From the IMG/VR virus record IMGVR_UViG_2541047861_000013: a stretch of 20,787 nt of DNA; one strand, written 5' to 3'. Position 1 is the first letter of the stretch. The number at the start of each line of letters is the position of its first letter. Under the pieces are notes generated by a model. That model saw only the letters and a program-made list of their open reading frames with translations, was not told the DNA's origin and did no database searches. Origin of the DNA: a virus (lineage: Duplodnaviria; Heunggongvirae; Uroviricota; Caudoviricetes). The position numbers and the translations under genes were made by a program. Shown piece by piece: positions 2,945-15,688 of the stretch.

Positions 2945-3937
2945 TTACACCACGCGGGCTTCTGTTTCCAGAAGCGCATCAGTTTCACGGATTGGTACAC
3001 CACGGAATGAAGTCCACCACTCGCCTTCTGTCTCTTTTACGCTGATAGCCAGAGATGTTTTCTCCAGAGACTGCAGATCAAGAGCCTGGCCTACAGTGCG
3101 GTTCATGTAGAACACCGGGCGGCCCATGCCACGGTTTGGAATGCGATGTAGTGCTTTAACCATCAACTTCGCAATATTTGCGGCAGAGGATGGTTCTGAA
3201 AGATTGCTGACATCGATGTTTGCAATGCGAACAACATAACGCCAGTCACGCAGAGCAAGTCCGTTATCCCATTTGTAATGGGTGCGATAGCCTTCGTACT
3301 TGCCGCCATTAGCATCTTCCAGTGTCACCTGGCCTTTATCTTCCATCTGGATGCCAGCCTTCTGCCCTTTCGGGAAGATGCCATGCACGGTGTTTTCGCC
3401 CCACACCACTAACCAGATTGAGGTGTTATCTGTACCCGTGCCACCAGCATCAATGATGTTCTGAGCATTACCCGCAGACAGGCTGGAATAGCGGGAGGAC
3501 AGTCCCATAAACTGCTGAGGGTTAACGCTGGAATCACCATAAAACAGCGTCTGCGCCATCTGCTGATTCATCGCTTCAATAAATGCGCGGTCTTCAGACA
3601 GGCGGAATTCGGCGGTATTGCCGTTCAGATCAGCCAGTGACTTATCGACTTCCGCATAGGTTTCCAGCATGCCAACGGAATCGGTTACCTGCACTGTGGT
3701 TGATTTGCTTGGCTGTACGCCATAGTTCAGCAAACGCCAGGTAGCTGAAGGTAAACCAGAACGAATGGTGGTTCGGTGTCCGGTAGGAAGGTTCCCTTCG
3801 ACAAAAGGCATATCCTGAAGGATCGGGTTAGTTTGACCGAGAAGCTCGATAATCTTATCGACTTTCCCGTTTGGATCGACGCGCTTACCCCAGTCAGCCA
3901 GCGTTAGCGCAGTTAAGCCTTTAACAGCCATTGTCAT
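2945..3937 (-). CDS. Major capsid protein
   Basis: ~330 aa ORF after the scaffold gene in the canonical portal-scaffold-capsid order; the second ATG (3931) has the better SD spacing. Not confirmed by homology search. Confidence 0.65.
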   Translation of the reverse strand: MTMAVKGLTALTLADWGKRVDPNGKVDKIIELLGQTNPILQDMPFVEGNLPTGHRTTIRSGLPSATWRLLNYGVQPSKSTTVQVTDSVGMLETYAEVDKSLADLNGNTAEFRLSEDRAFIEAMNQQMAQTLFYGDSSVNPQQFMGLSSRYSSLSAGNAQNIIDAGGTGTDNTSIWLVVWGENTVHGIFPKGQKAGIQMEDKGQVTLEDANGGKYEGYRTHYKWDNGLALRDWRYVVRIANIDVSNLSEPSSAANIAKLMVKALHRIPNRGMGRPVFYMNRTVGQALDLQSLEKTSLAISVKETEGEWWTSFRGVPIRETDALLETEARVV

Positions 3938-4643: not shown

Positions 4644-4940
4644 TCACTCCTGTTCACTGGCCTCTTTGGCCATCTTCAAATACTGTTCAGGGCAATGCGC
4701 CATAACGCGCTGAAACAGTTCCAGCGCCAGATTGCGTTGCCCCTCATTAAATGCCATTGCCATAGCGTCCATCGGTGAGATAGCGGAAAACACACGGCCT
4801 TTCTCCAGCACTGACCAGACAACGCGACGCCCCTGTTCACTGCTCATGACAAAGCGAATGTCATCAATTTCACGCTGTGCCATGTCACGTTGCTTACGGG
4901 CGTTTTCTTCTTTCAGTTGATCGTCTTCGTAATCTGTCAT
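4644..4940 (-). CDS. Hypothetical head-module protein (98 aa)
   Basis: ATG overlaps the portal stop (ATGA); charged, helical-looking sequence. Confidence 0.45.
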   Translation of the reverse strand: MTDYEDDQLKEENARKQRDMAQREIDDIRFVMSSEQGRRVVWSVLEKGRVFSAISPMDAMAMAFNEGQRNLALELFQRVMAHCPEQYLKMAKEASEQE

Positions 4941-6616
4941 TGTGATTGCCCACCCTGACCACTAACTGCATTCGCCATAGCTGACAAAACACTCGGATCC
5001 GAAGTTTTAGCTTCGCTTAGCGTCTTGGCACCCTGTGCCGCCACCATCCCCATCGCCATCATTTGTTGCTGCTGTTGTTGCTGTGCCCGTTGCTGGCGAG
5101 CCTGCTCAACCTGTTCCTGCGGAACAATGACGGTTGGAGACACTCCGGACATATCAGCGAATGCATCGATCGCCTGATCAACGTTGAGTTTGTCGAGAGC
5201 TTCTGGTTTCGCTTGCGCAAGTTGACCAATGAAGTTGACCGTAGACGCCAGACTGGACAGGCCGATAGACTTCTGCGCCTGAGCCATGACGGAAATGTAT
5301 TCGACCTTCAGGGGCATACCTTCCATCGCGTCAGGCGGTGGCGGCAGCATGTTTTTACGCACCATCATCGAGAAAGCGCGGTCAATGAGAGGATTAAGAC
5401 ATTCGTCGTTCAGACGCTCCAGAACCGGCCCCAACATCAGAAGTTTTTCTTCTTTCATTTCGATCACCGCTTCAACAGGCATCGAGCGGGTATTGATGTT
5501 CTGCAACATCATGAACAGATCGACAAAGTAGGCGCTGTTAATGATTTGACGGGTGTCCTGAATGTCTGCCACCAAATCTGCTGTACTGGGGTTAACCAGA
5601 TAAGCAGGCCTGAAACCATCCTGACCAGTAATCTGATCGATATACGTGATGTCGCCAGGAAGAAGGGAGGCACGCTGATTCTTGAGGGAAGTCGGAGCAA
5701 CCATCGGCGGATTGGTGGCTTTATCAATCAACTGCGACTTGCGCTTCTGGAGAAGCTGCAATGCCTTAACAGGTCCAAGCGCCAGCATACCCGGGCATGA
5801 TGATCCATAAACATCTTCGCCGTTAACTTCCCAGCGCGGAGCCATAATTGGAAACTCATCGAATCCGGACTCACGCAACAACTTGTCGTTATCGCCACCA
5901 ACCTCGTAATAAACCGATTTGAATGGCTTGTTCTTGCTATCCAGCTTCGATGTATCGCGGTCAATGTTCGGGTAAACCGAATGCATCACTTCAATCCACT
6001 TCTCGTAGGTGCCGCTTTCCCACATGCTTTTTACGGATTCGCTGACGTTATTTAGCCCGAACTCCTGAACAAGCTGACGAACAGTCATAGAGAACTTGCG
6101 AAAACAGGTGTCCACACTGCCACGAGGTGAGTTAGCCAGGTAGTAACTGCCTATCGGGAATGGCATTGTGCGAATGATGTCCTTGTCATCCTCCAGCACC
6201 GCCATTGCACCAGTGCTGTATGTGCCGAGGCTTCCGTATAACTGCGGAAGAGACTGGTAGAGATTCGACTTATTGAACATATCGTTCATGCGGTTCTGAA
6301 CTGCCTCAAGCCACAACTTAACAGGGCCATAGTCCATCATTTCAGGATCTGGCGTAGCCAGGCGAAACCACGGACGGGCGGGGCTTGTTATGCCTGACAT
6401 CATGCCGCTGGCAAGAGTGCGCGCCGCCATAGTCCCGGTCGAATCAATAATGCGTGTATTGCGTCGATCGTTACGGTTAACCTCAGAAGTCAGAAAGCGG
6501 GAACCACGCGGGTTGATGTAATCACTCAACTCGCGCCAGTGCGGCTCGAACGACTGACGCTCGCTTTCAAGTTGTGCGAACTGTTTGTTCAATCGCTCTT
6601 TAGTTGTTTCCGCCAT
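4937..6616 (-). CDS. Portal protein
   Basis: 559-aa ORF directly downstream of the terminase module with a Gln/Ala/Met-rich C-terminal tail; GGAG SD 8 nt upstream. Assignment by size and synteny. Confidence 0.7.
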   Translation of the reverse strand: MAETTKERLNKQFAQLESERQSFEPHWRELSDYINPRGSRFLTSEVNRNDRRNTRIIDSTGTMAARTLASGMMSGITSPARPWFRLATPDPEMMDYGPVKLWLEAVQNRMNDMFNKSNLYQSLPQLYGSLGTYSTGAMAVLEDDKDIIRTMPFPIGSYYLANSPRGSVDTCFRKFSMTVRQLVQEFGLNNVSESVKSMWESGTYEKWIEVMHSVYPNIDRDTSKLDSKNKPFKSVYYEVGGDNDKLLRESGFDEFPIMAPRWEVNGEDVYGSSCPGMLALGPVKALQLLQKRKSQLIDKATNPPMVAPTSLKNQRASLLPGDITYIDQITGQDGFRPAYLVNPSTADLVADIQDTRQIINSAYFVDLFMMLQNINTRSMPVEAVIEMKEEKLLMLGPVLERLNDECLNPLIDRAFSMMVRKNMLPPPPDAMEGMPLKVEYISVMAQAQKSIGLSSLASTVNFIGQLAQAKPEALDKLNVDQAIDAFADMSGVSPTVIVPQEQVEQARQQRAQQQQQQQMMAMGMVAAQGAKTLSEAKTSDPSVLSAMANAVSGQGGQSQ

Positions 6617-6630
6617 TTCAATGACTCCGG

Positions 6631-6837
6631 TTACTGACCAAGCAGCGTTTTACCGCTGGTATTAGCGGTTGATGTGTCGCCCTGAGAACCGGTAAGCAGC
6701 GTAGAACTACGACCAGCAGCAGCGCGACGGCGACGAGTTTCTTCGTCGCGGGCATCAACAACGGCGGCATCCTGCTCCTGTGGTGCTGCCTGAACTTCTG
6801 GTGTTGCAGGCACTGATGGTGAGCTACCCATGCACAT
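6631..6837 (-). CDS. Hypothetical small protein (68 aa, low complexity)
   Basis: Its translation-initiation region CGGAGTCATTGAT-ATG is a near-exact copy of the portal one (CGGAGTCATTGAA-ATG), which supports this frame over the overlapping 79-codon frame. Confidence 0.4.
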   Translation of the reverse strand: MCMGSSPSVPATPEVQAAPQEQDAAVVDARDEETRRRRAAAGRSSTLLTGSQGDTSTANTSGKTLLGQ

Positions 6838-6905
6838 ATCAATGACTCCGTACGCAATTAAATTATTACCAATTTAACCACATATGATTTATTTATCGTA
6901 GACAG

Positions 6906-6942
6906 TTGACATTTAACGCACGAATTATTACCTTTCAGGTAA
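6906..6942 (+). promoter_or_regulatory. Promoter-like TTGACA followed by a perfect TTACC-N5-GGTAA operator (6928-6942)
   Basis: TTGACA at 6906-6911; perfect 15-bp palindrome TTACCTTTCAGGTAA at 6928-6942. Which strand it serves (plus toward the tRNA, or minus toward the portal operon) is unresolved. Confidence 0.35.
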
Positions 6943-7264
6943 CCAAAGAATTCACTCCAGTTACTAATCTGACTGGCTTGTCGTTAAATTGAACAGGTGG
7001 GGTGAGCTTTTATTTTGAGCAGTACGGCGTATGGCACATGCGCCGATAGCGGTCTGGATACGTTTAAGGGGCACCCTCCCTTGCTCGGGCAAACGAACCA
7101 GGTAGCCGGAATGTGCAAGTCGAGCGGTTTTATTCCGCGCACGGGGATTCACCATCCCGGCGATTCGGTGTGACACCTCGGAAGAGACGAGGGTACAACG
7201 ATGAGAGCATTTATGGAGCCGCGACAAAGTGTGGCGCCTTAACAGGCTAAGTGCTCTCAGCGTT

Positions 7265-7341
7265 GTGGCATTAGCTCAGTTGGACAGAGCAACCGCCTTC
7301 TAAGCGGTTGGTCGCAGGTTCGAATCCTGCATGCCGCGCCA
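7265..7341 (+). tRNA. tRNA-Arg, anticodon UCU (argU-like), 3' CCA encoded
   Basis: Hand-folded cloverleaf: acceptor GTGGCAT/ATGCCGC (one G-U pair), D-stem GCTC/GAGC, anticodon stem ACCGC/GCGGT with loop CTTCTAA (anticodon TCT), T-stem GCAGG/CCTGC with TTCGAAT loop, discriminator G, CCA. Close to, but not identical with, my recollection of E. coli argU. Confidence 0.85.
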
Positions 7342-7384
7342 GAATCACGCCTAAGGACCGTGATGCCAGAAGTTCCAGGTGCTT

Positions 7385-7427
7385 GGCGGTGATGGTTTCC
7401 CTTGAAGGACTATCACCGCCCTTTTTA
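7385..7427 (+). terminator. Intrinsic terminator downstream of the tRNA
   Basis: GGCGGTGAT...ATCACCGCC stem followed by CTTTTTA. Confidence 0.5.
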
Positions 7428-7504
7428 CAGCAGGACGCCATTGCGATGACTTCATGCTGTAAACCCGTACAGCCACGGAAGGCATAACTCATTGCTTCCA
7501 GTTC

Positions 7505-7528
7505 GCCCGGTTCGCCGGGCATTTTTTT
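7505..7528 (+). terminator. Intrinsic terminator-like hairpin directly upstream of the moron ORF's ribosome-binding site
   Basis: GCCCGG-ttcg-CCGGGC followed by A-TTTTTTT, ending 11 nt before the ATG at 7540. Confidence 0.5.
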
Positions 7529-7539
7529 AAGGTGAGATC

Positions 7540-7962
7540 ATGAAAACAATTGATATGTTGGCTAAGTATCTAAATGAATGGCCATTAAAATATTCTCGTA
7601 TCGTTCAGGCTGAAGACTGCGTTTTTTATGGCGTTTTTGCTGGTAATGAAATGCATTACGAAGTAATTCAGAGTGAGGGACTGACCGGGTTAACTCTTAG
7701 CGAAGACCATGGTACTAGCGTTACGTTCCATGACTGGATAACAGCACAACGTTCTGAAATGGAAAAAGGCGATGTGTTTGATATTTCTCGCTCTGTTTGC
7801 GCTAAAGCAAAAAGTGATAATGATTACATGAGCGAACACTTATACAACATGAAGCTACAGTGCCTTGCCGAGGTGCTTGGTAAAAAAGCTATTGTCGATA
7901 AACAAGGCGCCATTAGCGAAGCAAAGGCAATAAATGCTGCATTTGATGAAATTATTTTCTAG
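7540..7962 (+). CDS. Hypothetical protein, 140 aa; AT-rich moron transcribed opposite to the late operon
   Basis: AAGGTG SD 5 nt before the ATG; a hand count of the first 120 nt gives roughly 35-40% GC, clearly below the flanking phage genes by eye; own downstream terminator; no transmembrane segment or recognisable catalytic motif. Confidence 0.6.
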   Translation: MKTIDMLAKYLNEWPLKYSRIVQAEDCVFYGVFAGNEMHYEVIQSEGLTGLTLSEDHGTSVTFHDWITAQRSEMEKGDVFDISRSVCAKAKSDNDYMSEHLYNMKLQCLAEVLGKKAIVDKQGAISEAKAINAAFDEIIF

Positions 7963-7965
7963 CTC

Positions 7966-7979
7966 TGTGACATGTCACA
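7966..7979. repeat. Perfect 14-bp palindrome TGTGACATGTCACA
   Basis: Read directly; sits between the moron stop (7962) and its terminator. A 13/14 copy lies at 10417-10430. Confidence 0.6.
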
Positions 7980-7982
7980 AAC

Positions 7983-8010
7983 AGCCAGCCTATGAGCTGG
8001 CTTTGTTTTA
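7983..8010 (+). terminator. Intrinsic terminator after the moron ORF
   Basis: AGCCAGC-ctatga-GCTGGCT followed by TTGTTTTA. Confidence 0.55.
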
Positions 8011-8052
8011 TCCTCACCAGAGGATATCAACGACATTATCCCCACCAGCGGA

Positions 8053-9528
8053 TTAAGCATAGGGATCGTAATCTGTGATGGCCTTGCCTTGCTGGTTCTG
8101 CTGACCGGGAATTCGCAGACGCTTCGACACAGGGAACGCAAACGTCAGCAGTAGCGCATCGCCTTTACCAGGAGAACGCCCAAGTCGCTCTTTGATATCT
8201 TCCTTCGGTTCGATAACGATTTTACCGTCCACTCGAACTTTGTACTCTGCTGCCGACAGGTCGTCCGCTGTTTCCTGGTCATCCAGCATGCCACCGAGCC
8301 TCAGCCATGTCTTGCATGAGTTGAACATCTCCCCACGCTTGTTGAGCATCTGCGGGTCAGTAGACGCGCCACCGAACGGAACAAGTTGCCATGTACGACC
8401 CCAGCCGTCACCGATTGACTTCAAACCGGTTCCGTAACCGAAGTCGATGAACACCGCGTCAGCCTGATACTGGTCTTCAAAGTCAGCGATACGCTTCGCC
8501 ATAATCAGATCGTCGGTAGTCTTGTTGCCAGTCCACAGCACCTTACTGTGTAGCCCCTGCCGCAGGTATATCACAGCGTCATCAACGCCGGAGTATGCCG
8601 GGTCAACGCCGATTATCACCGGAGCATGTGCAACCTGCGCAGCGGTTACCACCCGTTTCATTGCCTCGTCAGTAAGACCGGTAGGGATAAACTGCAATTC
8701 AGATGCATCAGGGAATATGCCACGCACACGGATTTTAACGAAGTCGCTGTCTTCCCCGTAGTCATCAACCCATTTCTGCAACTGCTGTTTGTTAGTGCCT
8801 TCCACCGTCCGGCTGTCAATCTGCGCAGTTTTCCAGCGGTGTTTATATTTGCGGAAACATTCGCGAAAACGCCCGGTGTTACGTGTAGGGTTTCCGAACG
8901 CCACCCAAATAATCTCAGTGTCTTCGTCCGTAAGCGCACCCTCGGCAACTTCCCACACCAGATCCGCAATGTTCGACGCTTCATCAAACACCACGATGAT
9001 GCGTTTGCGCTCGTTGTGTAGTCCGGCGAATGCCTCAGTGTTGTGCTCAGACCAGGGTATTGCGTCAGCCCGCCACCGCTTGTCGTGCCCAGGGTCATTG
9101 CTGTACATCGCGGTAGCGGTACAGGTAAACCAGTCTTTCGTGATAGCAAGGTTCGACCACTTGATAATTTCCGGCCAGGTCTTCGTTCGTAGCTGGTTGT
9201 CGGTGTTGGCGGTCACCACGACCTTACAATCCTCGCAAGTGGACATGCCCCAGTTGATGAGCATTGAGATGAATGCGGATTTACCAATACCGTGACCAGA
9301 AGCACGTGCCAGCATAAGCGGCTGATAACGCGTCTCTGGATTCTGCAGGTGATCACGTATCTCTCGGAACGCATCGGCCTGCCACTGACGTGGACCGGTA
9401 GCATGTGCCAGTTCAGTCCCCTCTTCCCCCCAAGGGAACGCATAGAGGGCATAGCCAAGCGGATCGTGAGTGAACCCTGCAATATCTTCGATTAACTGCT
9501 CTTCAGGAGATAACGCTGCATCTGTCAC
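8053..9528 (-). CDS. Terminase large subunit
   Basis: Walker A (ARASGHGIGKSAF) and Walker B-like IVVFDEA motifs; 491 aa; GTG start overlapping the small-subunit stop (GTGA). Confidence 0.85.
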   Translation of the reverse strand: MTDAALSPEEQLIEDIAGFTHDPLGYALYAFPWGEEGTELAHATGPRQWQADAFREIRDHLQNPETRYQPLMLARASGHGIGKSAFISMLINWGMSTCEDCKVVVTANTDNQLRTKTWPEIIKWSNLAITKDWFTCTATAMYSNDPGHDKRWRADAIPWSEHNTEAFAGLHNERKRIIVVFDEASNIADLVWEVAEGALTDEDTEIIWVAFGNPTRNTGRFRECFRKYKHRWKTAQIDSRTVEGTNKQQLQKWVDDYGEDSDFVKIRVRGIFPDASELQFIPTGLTDEAMKRVVTAAQVAHAPVIIGVDPAYSGVDDAVIYLRQGLHSKVLWTGNKTTDDLIMAKRIADFEDQYQADAVFIDFGYGTGLKSIGDGWGRTWQLVPFGGASTDPQMLNKRGEMFNSCKTWLRLGGMLDDQETADDLSAAEYKVRVDGKIVIEPKEDIKERLGRSPGKGDALLLTFAFPVSKRLRIPGQQNQQGKAITDYDPYA

Positions 9529-10120: not shown

Positions 10121-10153
10121 TAACCACCGTGGTAATAGTTACCGTTGTGGTAA
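10121..10153 (-). promoter_or_regulatory. Tandem operator-like sites at the terminase small-subunit start
   Basis: TAACCACCGTGGTAA (10121-10135, one mismatch) and TTACCGTTGTGGTAA (10139-10153, perfect), 18 bp apart, just downstream of a minus-strand terminator. Confidence 0.45.
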
Positions 10154-12761: not shown

Positions 12762-13544
12762 TTACTTGATAAATCCTGCCGCCTTTCCCCGCCTGTATTC
12801 CTCCATCAGCCACTGCGCCGGTGTTATTCCCCCTAGGGTGGCGGCGTTAGGCATGCACCCGAAACTTCGCCCTGGTGGATGGTAAACGTCTCTCCCTGTG
12901 TCCGGAGGCGTACTCATTGGTTCTGGCTTTGCCTGTATGCTGATCACCGGATCGGGTATCTGCTGTCCGGAAGCCACCTTTTTCGCCCAATCATCGAGCA
13001 GCCTGCGCGCGTGTTTCTCAACCTCAATCTCGCTAAGCTGGCGCTGATACATTGCACGGCGGGTATCACATACGACCCAGTACATAACCGGATGTCGCCA
13101 CGGGAATCTTTCGGGACCACCAGGATATAAACTTTTTTCCTTGCTGTACCGGTGAAACTCCGCCATCACATCGTCAATGGTGACGCCAAGAACCATCTTG
13201 CTGTCTTTGCACCACTTGATGAATTGCCCAGGCGACGGCCAGAACGGAGATTCACTGGCGCGGGCGTGGCGCATACCAGCGTTAACCTGTTCCATTGTTG
13301 TGATCCCATTCTCCAGAAACGCAAGCATCCATTGTTTTCGAAATTCGTTTAGCTTTCCTTGCTCGCTGATAGCAGCGATGCTGCCTGGAAATGCAGCCTG
13401 TAACTGGACAAACATTTCGTTGAAAATTCTTGCAACCTGCTCCTTCTTTGCCCTTTCATCGTCAGCAGAAGCAACCGCCGTCGAGTGGTCATGCCCACCA
13501 CGAAAGCGATCGTACTCATTAAGAAGTTCTGGAGTTGATTTCAT
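12762..13544 (-). CDS. Lambda P-like replication protein (DnaB helicase loader)
   Basis: WMLAFLENGITTMEQVNAGMRHARASESPFWPSPGQFIKWC is near-identical to the lambda P segment as I recall it (WVLAFRENGITTMEQVNAGMRVARRQNRPFLPSPGQFVAWC); start set at the ATG (MKSTPELL) with GAGGTG SD. Confidence 0.75.
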   Translation of the reverse strand: MKSTPELLNEYDRFRGGHDHSTAVASADDERAKKEQVARIFNEMFVQLQAAFPGSIAAISEQGKLNEFRKQWMLAFLENGITTMEQVNAGMRHARASESPFWPSPGQFIKWCKDSKMVLGVTIDDVMAEFHRYSKEKSLYPGGPERFPWRHPVMYWVVCDTRRAMYQRQLSEIEVEKHARRLLDDWAKKVASGQQIPDPVISIQAKPEPMSTPPDTGRDVYHPPGRSFGCMPNAATLGGITPAQWLMEEYRRGKAAGFIK

Positions 13545-14352
13545 CCCACACCTCATCTATCCAGTCAGTGTTATGCCAGTCAAGGCTCTTTCTGACTTCA
13601 CCTGATTTCTGTCTACAGAACTGGATGCGCCTTGCCAGCTTCTGCTCCCACTGTGCCTGATGGTATGCCTTACCCTCAGCCATCCAGTAAATTCTGAACT
13701 CTGCAAGTTCCTGTGCCGTTGGCAGACTGTCCAGGTAGATTCCCTGCAATGAGCTTTTCCGAAGAAAGTCATCTGATGGCTGCCATTGTTCATGCATGAC
13801 AAATTTACCTAATTGCCCTGGCCCACCAGGAGGAACAAAGTTATTCATCACGGCGTTGTTTGCGCCGGGGTCATGAGGAACAGAATCCCCGGTTTTTGTC
13901 CTGCTCTCCCTCTCTTGGTTAAATGACTGGTTATATGACTGGTTCTGGATCCCGTTTTTGGGATCATTCAACATCCCGTTTTTGGGATCATTCAACATCC
14001 CGTTTTTGGGTATATTCCCGTTTTCGGTAACATTACCGTTTTCGGGTTCATTGCCCCCCTCCCGGTTGCCTTTAATGTTCCCGTTTTTGGTTATATTAAG
14101 AGAGAAAACCCGCACTCTTTTTGTCGCTCCCTTTCTCTCTCCGGTATCTGAAATAAGCCCCATTTTCATGAGCGATATAAGCCCGGCCTGCACGGTTTTT
14201 TTATTCAGGCAAGTGTCTTTAACGAGGCGTTCTATGCTGGGGTAGCAGAGGTTATATTCATCGGCTCTGTCAGCCATCGAGAGCAGTATGAGCTTTAATG
14301 ATGAGCTACCTGGATCTGTCTCCCAGGCCCAATCTGTTGCATGTCTGCTCAT
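13519..14352 (-). CDS. Lambda O-like replication initiator with origin iterons inside the gene
   Basis: Sits upstream of and overlapping the P-like gene; central Asn/Gly-rich repeats (NGMLNDPKNGMLNDPKNG) are encoded by the DNA iterons. Confidence 0.55.
   Translation of the reverse strand: MSRHATDWAWETDPGSSSLKLILLSMADRADEYNLCYPSIERLVKDTCLNKKTVQAGLISLMKMGLISDTGERKGATKRVRVFSLNITKNGNIKGNREGGNEPENGNVTENGNIPKNGMLNDPKNGMLNDPKNGIQNQSYNQSFNQERESRTKTGDSVPHDPGANNAVMNNFVPPGGPGQLGKFVMHEQWQPSDDFLRKSSLQGIYLDSLPTAQELAEFRIYWMAEGKAYHQAQWEQKLARRIQFCRQKSGEVRKSLDWHNTDWIDEVWDEINSRTS
13951..14091. repeat. Origin iterons: CCCGTTTTTGGG cores
   Basis: Three perfect copies at 24-bp spacing (13951, 13975, 13999) plus degenerate copies at 14017, 14035 and 14080, all within the O-like ORF. 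Confidence 0.6.
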
Positions 14353-14674: not shown

Positions 14675-14696
14675 AAAAGACCGCCGGGTGGCGGTC
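14675..14696 (-). terminator. Intrinsic terminator downstream of the Cro-like gene
   Basis: GACCGCC-acc c-GGCGGTC followed on the minus strand by UUUUCAU. Confidence 0.5.
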
Positions 14697-14718
14697 TACA
14701 GAGGGTTGTGGCTGGATA

Positions 14719-14949
14719 TCATGAGTAGAAGAAGTATGCCAGTTCTGCTTTTGAGCGCAGCCATTGTCTTGTTTTACAGGCTTTAAAAAGCCCATTCATC
14801 AATACTTTACCTGGCATTTTTCGCTTACCTGTTAAGTGAGTCTGGATATAGTGACTCGTCGTTCCGGCTTCCTGTGCGAAGGCTTCACGCTCATCCGGAG
14901 TAAGTGCAAGCCAGTGCTTTTTGAAATCGAAATGTCCGTTATCGCTCAT
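14719..14949 (-). CDS. Cro-like HTH regulator (76 aa)
   Basis: Divergent from the repressor gene across the operator region; small protein with a putative HTH; weak SD. Confidence 0.55.
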   Translation of the reverse strand: MSDNGHFDFKKHWLALTPDEREAFAQEAGTTSHYIQTHLTGKRKMPGKVLMNGLFKACKTRQWLRSKAELAYFFYS

Positions 14950-15103: not shown

Positions 15104-15688
15104 ATGAAAAGTATCCAGGACGTCCGCAGGCAAAATCTCAACGACTTGATCGACCGTGAATTCAATGGTGTTCAGACGCGGATGGCAGAAAAACTTGGAA
15201 CTCAGGCAAATCTGGTAAACCGCTGGGCTCTTGGCAAGAAGGTTATCGGCGACCAGGTTGCGCGAAAAATTGAAGCTGCCGCCAATAAACCCCGTAACTG
15301 GCTTGATATCGATCGCTCGCTTTCTCAGGAAGGTTTTCAGCCTGTCGGCCCAAGCGACATTGGTCAGCTGGCGGCTCACAACCTGGAACGCTGGATGAGC
15401 GAAAGCCGCGACCTTTCAACACAGGGAAAACTTCACCGCGCATCCGGCGTCGCCCAGGTGACAATCAGCCGCCTGTTAAACAATGAGGTCAGCGTTTCCA
15501 TTTCCACCCTGGAGAATGTTGCATCCGCATTCGGGCGTCACGGCTATGAATTACTGATTCACCCGCACGACCCTGCGACTATCAACTATGACCGCTCGCG
15601 CTACGCATTGTTACCCGAAACAGAGAAGGCAAAGATCGAAAGTTACATTGAATTTGTCATCAGCCAGAACGAAAAAAACAAACAATAA
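15104..15688 (+). CDS. Phage repressor, CI-equivalent, with two HTH (XRE-type) regions and no LexA-like peptidase domain
   Basis: N-terminal HTH (GVQTRMAEKLGTQANLVNRWALGKK) and a second HTH-like segment (ASGVAQVTISRLLNNEVSVSISTLENVASAFG); no Ser/Lys autoprotease signature; divergent from the Cro-like gene. Confidence 0.65.
   Translation: MKSIQDVRRQNLNDLIDREFNGVQTRMAEKLGTQANLVNRWALGKKVIGDQVARKIEAAANKPRNWLDIDRSLSQEGFQPVGPSDIGQLAAHNLERWMSESRDLSTQGKLHRASGVAQVTISRLLNNEVSVSISTLENVASAFGRHGYELLIHPHDPATINYDRSRYALLPETEKAKIESYIEFVISQNEKNKQ

Follow-up and report, generated by a model that had tools for sequence, protein, structure and literature searches.

A predicted plus-strand transcription unit, with a structured RNA and an exchangeable last gene, between the terminase and portal genes of an epsilon15-like phage

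The stretch analysed here, a viral DNA of 20,787 nucleotides (IMG/VR record IMGVR_UViG_2541047861_000013; 'the window' hereafter denotes this stretch at its full length), comes from an epsilon15/phiV10-like temperate podophage or prophage of E. coli belonging to the genus Uetakevirus. Between its genes for the large terminase subunit (TerL) and the portal lies a slot of about 1.2 kb that reads on the opposite, plus strand, and on balance we favour the view that this slot is one autonomous transcription unit, as predicted from its parts, in which the last gene is an exchangeable cassette. The unit would open with a sigma-70 promoter that has a copy of an operator palindrome over its -10 hexamer and start site, and would continue through a leader of about 85 nt, a pseudoknotted RNA of 170 nt, a tRNA-Arg(UCU) and two tandem intrinsic terminators to a Shine-Dalgarno (SD) sequence and a cargo open reading frame (ORF), which in the window is a 140-codon gene referred to as ORF140; a last terminator would halt transcription ahead of TerL. 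The parts occur in this order in the window, and their conservation among relatives, the edges of the cassette and the diversity of what it carries can all be read directly from alignments.

The slot is delimited by TerL (8053-9528, minus strand; phrog_2 and phrog_5902, and TerL by annotation in phiV10, PAS61 and epsilon15) and by a gp3-like ORF of 68 aa (6631-6837, minus strand; phrog_831, the counterpart of epsilon15p03 and PhiV10p06), next to which the portal gene is located (4937-6616, minus strand). The distance from the stop codon of TerL to the start of gp3 is 1215 nt, so that an antisense unit of the size given in the first-pass annotation of this DNA does exist, with the amendment that the gp3-like ORF also stands before the portal gene. 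The same annotation had regarded the unit as an insert in a normally adjacent terminase-portal pair, a notion that the comparison does not support. A plus-strand unit is found between TerL and gp3 in all annotated relatives compared, and the opposite-strand unit is kept in every Uetakevirus examined, whether from E. coli, Salmonella, Klebsiella or Enterobacter, which identifies it as ancestral architecture within which the ORF alone varies. The 427 nt between gp3 and the tRNA (6838-7264) are no empty spacer and are occupied by the promoter with its operator and by the structured RNA. Pfam matches relate the capsid protein of the window to PF20911 (epsilon15 GP7), the portal to PF12236 and the small terminase to PF03592, and the locus is 99.9% identical to that of Escherichia phage HEMP4 and 92-98% identical to those of PAS61, phiV10, phiv142-3 and TL-2011b.

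Cassette boundaries and the cargo gene

Pairwise comparison identified three blocks that are common to every relative, namely the promoter region (6840-6942; conserved at no less than 84% in epsilon15, SPC32H and Tyrion), the segment comprising leader, terminators and SD sequence (7391-7543), and the final terminator (7965-8007), which is kept whatever the cargo. In phiV10, identity to the window is 98% over 6838-7540, the last of these positions being the A of the ATG, and 92.5% over 7967-8060, which sets the edges of the cassette at the ATG and at 4 nt past the stop codon. What phiV10 carries between those edges is a 123-aa protein of the Phage_gp49_66 family, unrelated to ORF140; a remote homology of the two was considered and rejected (hhalign probability 0.15%).

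Different ORFs likewise occupy the slot in phiV10, epsilon15, SPC32H, Tyrion and KpST512. A survey of phage records and IMG/VR contigs yielded 44 unique slots of 706-2275 nt with more than 12 cargo families in all, and the cargo included 23 ORFs of the Gp49_66 family, 18 of the ORF140 family and at least 10 other real-looking families, among them a 261-aa coiled-coil protein, a DUF2829 protein and DUF551, while SPC32H has a membrane-anchored protein (168 aa in our scan vs 138 aa as annotated). In Klebsiella and Enterobacter prophages an ORF140 homologue is followed by Gp49_66 in one and the same slot, and this co-occurrence indicates that the two are not alternatives for a single function. The exact 140-aa sequence of ORF140 was found in the assembly collection with 749 blocks listed, and in every E. 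coli chromosome examined it occupies the same prophage slot. Collectively, these findings support the view that ORF140 is horizontally exchanged cargo of a variable slot whose cassette boundaries are unusually sharp. Horizontal acquisition, and the idea that the terminase-portal junction might be a variable cargo site, had both been put forward in the first-pass annotation; the alignment of relatives and the 44 slots bear them out, as do the replacement of the cargo in relatives and its foreign base composition.

Given where ORF140 lies, one might ask if it could be an accessory of head assembly or packaging and hence a member of the terminase-portal module. Nothing but its location next to TerL on one side and the portal gene on the other speaks for this, and we find the idea hardly credible: the gene runs on the opposite strand, no structural-protein family was matched, unrelated proteins take its place in the viable phages phiV10, epsilon15, SPN1S and Tyrion, and the ORF is not conserved with the head module in every relative. 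The exchange of cargo among viable phages leads us to exclude a virion or assembly role.

ORF140 (7540-7962, plus strand; ATG start) encodes a protein of 140 aa with a pI of 4.9 and a net charge of about -8. Exact calculation upheld the earlier hand count by which the ORF is richer in AT than its neighbours, giving a GC content of 0.392 (GC3 0.35) compared to 0.499 for the window, 0.537 for TerL and 0.514 for the portal gene; this is the minimum of all 423-nt segments in the 20.8 kb (percentile 0.0003). The protein matches phrog_4846, of unknown function (1.8e-88), and its 80 homologues, which are 38-100% identical and of constant length, are all from Enterobacteriaceae and all annotated as hypothetical. 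Compared with the PAS61 copy, both halves of the protein have a dN/dS of 0.20. We conclude that ORF140 is a real gene and that purifying selection acts on it.

AlphaFold2 modelled ORF140 with a mean pLDDT of 81 overall and of 88 in the N-terminal domain. In the model, residues 1-75 fold into an alpha/beta domain, which a disordered linker (82-90) connects to a helical hairpin at the C-terminus (93-137). Conservation is highest in the C-terminal module of about 45 residues (about 93-140, encoded at 7810-7962 in the window; …LYNMKLQCL…AINAAFD…), which recurs fused to unrelated N-terminal domains in Tyrion gp53 (locus L004, 3720-4091) and in the proteins P0096 and P0099. The N-terminal domain, for its part, is combined with other C-termini in P0109 and P0088, and an extra tail of about 60 aa is present in P0047 and P0088.

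It had been remarked from the sequence that the protein has no recognisable motif and no transmembrane segment, and both remarks withstood closer analysis. ORF140 is soluble and acidic, it had no match in PADLOC, NCBIfam or Pfam (E<=1 or below), and the PDB contained neither a sequence match at E<=10 nor a matching fold. In the BFVD library of viral structures the fold retrieved uncharacterised phage proteins only, and a profile searched against 1.84 billion representatives returned 32 clusters only, all from the same family or its fragments, so that profile and structure searches provided no family or fold beyond phrog_4846; nor did the literature searched hold a description of the protein. 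ORF140 adds to the catalogue an orphan two-domain family, phrog_4846, for which there is a confident model and, for the N-terminal domain, no known fold. More broadly, the slot constitutes a defined, genus-wide place from which uncharacterised small phage proteins can be harvested, and its fixed flanks ease both mining and swapping.

Promoter, operator, tRNA and terminators

The sole recognisable plus-strand promoter of the slot is a predicted sigma-70 promoter at 6906-6934, read from the sequence as a -35 hexamer TTGACA (6906-6911), a 17-nt spacer and a -10 hexamer TACCTT (6929-6934), and we infer that it drives the plus-strand unit. A promoter scan also reported an overlapping site, TAGACA-18-AATTAT, at 6899-6928, and no minus-strand site there. 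Overlapping the -10 hexamer and the predicted start is an operator-type palindrome, ATTACCTTTCAGGTAAC (6927-6943), of the form TTACC-N5-GGTAA. With up to one mismatch this form occurs 10 times in the window (at 6928, 10121, 10139, 12648, 12710, 14649, 14986, 15034, 15746 and 15808) vs 0.3 copies expected. Two copies lie between a cro-like gene (14719-14949, minus strand) and the repressor gene (15104-15688, plus strand) and two just downstream of the latter, those at 10121 and 10139 are at the 5' end of the gene for the small terminase subunit (TerS), and the gap ahead of the P-like replication gene likewise carries the palindrome. This distribution suggests that one repressor directly controls several operons, the late one included. 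The homologous site in the slot of epsilon15 is labelled as a repressor-binding site in the GenBank record of that phage, and we infer that repressor binds at 6927-6943 as well.

An operator palindrome over the only upstream promoter leads to the prediction that the slot is silent in the lysogen and becomes active once the prophage is induced. In the lysogen, repressor would shut the promoter, and upon induction or infection the unit would fire early. Expression from the prophage state, which had been proposed at first, is thus not what the layout predicts, the more so as two terminators precede the ORF; repressor-controlled early expression is predicted instead. Entirely because of this predicted timing, we favour host takeover or counter-defence over conversion or exclusion as the field in which ORF140 acts. 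Judged by its context, as a small, soluble, acidic and modular protein that is under purifying selection and comes from a hypervariable cassette, it is most likely an early accessory protein directed at a target in the host or a competitor, and a role as a lysogenic-conversion or virion protein is unlikely.

As an aside, a terminator-like hairpin, GACCGCCACCCGGCGGTC, followed by TTTT is found on the minus strand at 14677-14697, directly 3' of the cro-like gene, and next to it is another operator-like palindrome; this layout resembles that of tR1 of lambda.

The tRNA-Arg gene reported at first sight was confirmed by two programs. It is located at 7265-7341 (plus strand), has the anticodon UCU and an encoded CCA end, and was recognised by ARAGORN (tct, position 35) and by Rfam (RF00005, 69.4 bits at a gathering score of 29); phiv142-3, SPC32H and the O157 typing phages likewise have an annotated tRNA-Arg. 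No AGA codon occurs in the structural genes or in ORF140 itself. The O-like replication gene (13519-14352, minus strand) has 8 AGA and 3 AGG among its 16 arginine codons, and the P-like replication gene (12762-13556, minus strand) has 3 AGA and 4 AGG. With AGA codons concentrated in these two genes, an early supply of tRNA-Arg(UCU) makes sense and the replication genes are plausible clients, for which the tRNA would provide AGA decoding. The presence of a tRNA in an early, operator-controlled unit together with AGA-rich replication genes provides a testable reason for the phage to carry it.

Downstream of the tRNA, a scan identified a first intrinsic terminator, T1 (7385-7426, plus strand), consisting of a stem-loop at 7385-7420 followed by CTTTTT, whose stem relatives from Klebsiella and Enterobacter retain through a compensatory change (GGCGGTGAT/ATCACCGCC vs GGCGGTGG/CCACCGCC). 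The second terminator, T2 (7505-7528, plus strand), has the hairpin GCCCGG-TTCG-CCGGGC (7505-7520) followed by A and seven T, is invariant together with its T-run in all 24 unique leaders examined, and abuts the SD sequence AAGGTGAG (7529-7536, plus strand), which was read from the sequence 3 nt before the ATG and is conserved with the leader up to the ATG. An imperfect 40-nt palindrome, TTACAGCA...TGCTGTAA (7424-7463, plus strand), is located in the leader between T1 and T2. In several relatives it is 80% identical to its own reverse complement. It is kept from E. coli to Klebsiella and Enterobacter, falls within a predicted leader fold (z = -3.45), and might form a hairpin in the RNA or be bound by a protein. 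The third terminator, T3 (7983-8010, plus strand), follows the cargo gene and was found by the scan as a hairpin at 7983-8002 followed by TTTGTTTT. An ORF of 140 codons with its own SD sequence and terminator had therefore been correctly recognised from the start; ahead of the ORF, a single terminator had been noted and there are in fact two (7385-7420 and 7505-7520). The scan reported four sites in the region vs 2.2 expected by shuffling, a count that by itself is weak evidence, and the three plus-strand hairpins and their T-runs are conserved across genera.

A consensus scan found no sigma-70-like promoter between T1 (7420) and the ATG (7540), although a promoter of a weak or alternative-sigma type could escape it. 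Since T1 and T2 are conserved and no promoter is recognisable between T1 and the ATG, the cargo gene always stands behind two terminators. The abundant products of the unit would accordingly be expected to be the structured RNA and the tRNA, as most transcripts would end at T1 or T2 and the cargo would be translated from read-through, at a low or conditional level.

This arrangement bears directly on the classic moron, in which ORF140 would be transcribed alone from the repressed prophage and would have a defence, superinfection-exclusion or conversion function. Several features of the gene fit a moron: it is antisense to the late operon, low in GC, equipped with its own terminator and variable among relatives, and the slot elsewhere carries a membrane-anchored protein. 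Moreover, the upstream terminators could serve to insulate ORF140 from the early promoter, with a weak, unrecognised promoter acting alone. Such a promoter, however, was not detected by the scan and would have to fire through T2, which abuts the SD sequence, and the conserved upstream promoter carries the operator palindrome. ORF140 itself, without a PADLOC match, is a soluble, acidic protein and not a membrane protein. We consider this explanation rather unlikely.

Alternatively, the unit proper might consist of the RNA and the tRNA gene and end at T1/T2, in which case the cargo would be a passenger, that is, poorly expressed or silent DNA at a recombination-prone site and with no dedicated role. 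Two strong terminators directly after the tRNA would be in line with this, as would the high heterogeneity of the cargo and of the length of the slot. In addition, epsilon15 demonstrates that parts of the unit can be lost, as its slot (locus L003, 3998-4226) has, relative to the window, a deletion of the RNA body, the tRNA and the 5' arm of T1 and retains the leader, T2 and a Gp49_66 cargo. A phage can thus be viable without the RNA body and the tRNA, and the cargo, too, may be independent of them. We nevertheless judge a silent passenger improbable: different genera share the SD sequence and the leader as far as the ATG, a dedicated terminator is maintained downstream, and ORF140 has been kept under purifying selection and is maintained in hundreds of assemblies.

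The structured RNA and its possible roles

The RNA upstream of the tRNA, of about 170 nt (7023-7195, plus strand), was defined by covariation and by a covariance model. Its nested helices are P1 (7025-7032/7038-7045), P2 (7049-7057/7098-7106), which has a variable tip, P4 (7144-7148/7154-7158) and P5 (7176-7180/7188-7192), all on the plus strand; P3 is variable and was left out of the structure test. An invariant single strand, CGGAAUGUGCAAG (7107-7119), follows P2, and the single-stranded segments as a whole are nearly invariant. Two pseudoknots are proposed, the first of which (7034-7037/7113-7116) is invariant and so offers no covariation to judge by, while the second (7150-7153/7167-7170) has undergone one compensatory change, from C-G to A-U. 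Between this core and the tRNA, a 3' extension (7196-7264, plus strand) is predicted by minimum-free-energy folding to adopt a hairpin domain that GAGAGCA/TGCUCUC closes. The extension is outside the universal core; the cdtI/mEp460 class shares it at 82%, and there homology stops 4 nt into the tRNA.

Structure was tested for P1, P2, P4, P5 and the two pseudoknots on an alignment of 62 sequences below 93% identity. In this alignment 92.5% of the cells are paired, vs 25-45% with slid partners, two-sided changes occur in 15 pairs (136 cells), and none of 500 shuffles reached the observed value on any measure. The frequent G-U pairs place the RNA on the plus strand and rule out the small minus-strand ORFs that have been annotated over it. 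Hence the reading of this region as such an ORF (6964-7227; gp37 in mEp460) was rejected, G-U covariation being confined to the plus strand and the translation being of low complexity. Public records also place hypothetical proteins over the tRNA or the structured RNA, for the most part on the other strand, and these annotations are probably spurious; examples are 7271-7522 (minus strand) in the window, PhiV10p04 (3172-3423), mEp460 gp37 (2443-2811) and mEp390 gp36 (2011-2253).

A covariance model of the alignment scores 140 bits for the window and 34.5 bits for the truncated copy in epsilon15. For 7023-7195, Rfam 15 returned no match at the gathering threshold and none at E<=10 with permissive filters, and the literature searched, which covered put-like RNAs, phiV10/epsilon15, the P1 ban operon and the invariant 19-mer GGTAGCCGGAATGTGCAAG, contained no description of it. 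The RNA therefore appears to represent an undescribed family, and one of wide distribution. The segment 7024-7268 matches unannotated DNA of the lambdoid phages cdtI, mEp460, 2H10 and mEp390 and of Stx2c/Stx2a phages, and also matches P1, P7, D6, SJ46, RCS47, Klebsiella phages and a Stenotrophomonas phage. The invariant 19-mer is present in more than 120 IMG/VR contigs and in 24 stretches of species-representative genomes, all from Enterobacterales but for two short contigs of metagenome-assembled genomes (L153 and L166, labelled Bacillota and Lachnospiraceae), which probably reflect a binning error. The RNA was found in 1836 of 5426 complete E. coli genomes and, among the matches listed, is nearly always unannotated. 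The element has gone without annotation in P1, near the immunity regions of many lambdoid and Shiga-toxin phages and in roughly one in three complete E. coli genomes.

The contexts in which the RNA occurs have a common theme, in that they seem to place it on a repressor-controlled transcript made early in lytic growth. In lambdoid phages the RNA lies on the cI strand, after the cI terminator, operator-like palindromes and a PL-like promoter, an order shared by loci with repressors of at least seven unrelated families. The first helix of the RNA begins 2-4 nt after the predicted start in six promoter classes, and other classes have a leader of 45-85 nt; in the window the RNA is about 85 nt from the predicted transcription start. 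At the head of these RNA-bearing lambdoid left operons no N-like gene is annotated, and the first ORF of mEp460 is not arginine-rich. In P1 and P7 the RNA is part of the ban operon, which C1 controls, and stands ahead of ban itself and 15 nt behind a tRNA-Ile. Since a tRNA adjoins the RNA in only 32 of 124 contexts, a general role as a tRNA leader was rejected. In the Klebsiella phage SopranoGao (Lastavirus; locus L017, 1937-2099) the RNA lies close to the end of the genome, on the downstream side of the lysis cassette, where a strong promoter immediately precedes it; it is thus not confined to the neighbourhood of immunity regions.

Conceivably, the RNA makes polymerase resistant to termination, as put of HK022 does, and so lets it pass T1 and T2. 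In full, the proposal is that the RNA is the first member of a new class of phage RNAs directed at the transcription machinery of the host, a cis-acting processive antiterminator unlike put in both sequence and fold, with which temperate phages of Enterobacterales head repressor-controlled early operons, and that ORF140 is one of many interchangeable early proteins of counter-defence or host takeover expressed behind it. We offer this tentatively and give it a limited chance of being right. The list of operons that would be headed in this way, namely the PL-like operons of lambdoid phages without an annotated N gene, the ban operon of P1 and the Uetakevirus slot, is to be taken with the same reserve. 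The argument for antitermination is one of position, and a trans-acting role as decoy or sponge is about as likely.

In the latter case, the RNA would be an early product serving as decoy or sponge, its target being a conserved host factor or a defence system, or it would be a catalytic or processing RNA, and would have no link to the expression of the cargo. We regard this as a serious possibility, albeit not one to rely on. The RNA is a self-contained module in three unrelated phage architectures with unrelated genes downstream, its nearly invariant single strands suggest a conserved binding partner, and in P1 it is located about 2.4 kb from the operator of the ban operon and not near the 5' end. 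Terminators also bear on the question. They follow the RNA in 23 of 24 Uetakevirus contexts and, elsewhere, in 24 of 72 within 600 nt, and outside the Uetakeviruses they are not enriched downstream of the RNA (0.85 per 1200 nt vs 1.8 upstream and 2.3 on the opposite strand), which is in accordance with a role in trans. It should be noted that the detector missed a long-loop terminator in mEp460, so the enrichment test is weak in both directions. That intrinsic terminator, GCGGTACCAG...CTGGTACCGC followed by TCTTTTT (about 2886-2935), is located between the RNA and the first gene of the left operon, with no N-like gene in between. By contrast, a purely trans-acting RNA hardly explains why the element is found at, or tens of nt from, early promoters in at least six independent promoter classes, and in most contexts the RNA has no terminator of its own directly after it.

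The lack of terminator enrichment also weighs against the proposal that a repressor-controlled unit is read through with the help of the RNA, and so do several other points. At the promoter, the -10 hexamer TACCTT is weak, and the single operator could serve an unrecognised minus-strand promoter for gp3 and the portal gene. Promoter, operator occupancy, timing and read-through are all predictions. As regards the RNA, it is present in a single copy per locus: across 71 loci the covariance model detected no second, diverged copy that might be the analogue of putR, and in HK022 it finds nothing. That epsilon15 still carries a cargo without the RNA body, the tRNA and half of T1 may likewise tell against a dependence of the cargo on them. 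Finally, the cargo of some relatives, such as the membrane-anchored protein of SPC32H, looks more like an exclusion or defence protein, and there is no pointer to what ORF140 binds. If the RNA does modify transcription, it would represent a second, independent solution to RNA-only antitermination and could explain how the left operon is expressed in lambdoid phages without an annotated N gene.

Comparison with known systems

The commonest cargo of the slot, the Phage_gp49_66 family (PF13876; N4 Gp49/Sf6 gene 66 family), resembles ORF140 in occupying the same cassette position behind the same leader and in being small, acidic and of unknown function; the two have no detectable relationship in sequence. 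The tRNA can be compared with the tRNA-Arg(UCU) of phiV10 relatives and SPN1S-like phages, with which it shares the anticodon, a canonical cloverleaf and a temperate enterobacterial phage as carrier. The tRNA itself is ordinary, and what is new is its predicted co-transcription with a structured RNA in an operator-controlled unit, along with the concentration of AGA codons in the replication genes.

For the RNA, the closest point of reference is the put RNA of HK022, a cis-acting processive antiterminator of about 70 nt with two stem-loops (PMC9378689). The action of put, by which RNA polymerase passes terminators downstream in cis, involves the beta' zinc-binding domain of the enzyme. Similarly to put, the RNA described here is located just downstream of an early repressor-controlled promoter, and, like putL, it begins 2-4 nt downstream of the predicted start in several classes. 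Its carriers include lambdoid phages whose left operon opens without an annotated N gene, and in the window terminators come after it. In contrast to put, it measures about 170 nt and has five helices along with two proposed pseudoknots, and it is a single copy per phage with no counterpart of putR. The RNA is not a classical put, a candidate identity that was rejected because the architecture differs and the best hit of the covariance model (R1) in the HK022 genome has 5.3 bits (E = 2.6).

As for the slot, morons and variable accessory positions are well known from HK97 and HK022, where the concept arose, and from the 'moron positions' of P2 (PMC3573123). Like a moron, the ORF of the slot has a set place between essential genes that in part of the relatives is taken by a different gene, and it is antisense to its neighbours, deviant in base composition and furnished with its own terminator. 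It is unlike one in that no promoter of its own was found and that the cargo shares, throughout the genus, a promoter with operator, a structured RNA, a tRNA, two terminators and the stretch from the SD sequence to the ATG; besides, the promoter of the slot is predicted to be repressor-controlled, and expression in the lysogen is not expected. We therefore regard the cargo slot as a variant of the known theme of morons and accessory hotspots.

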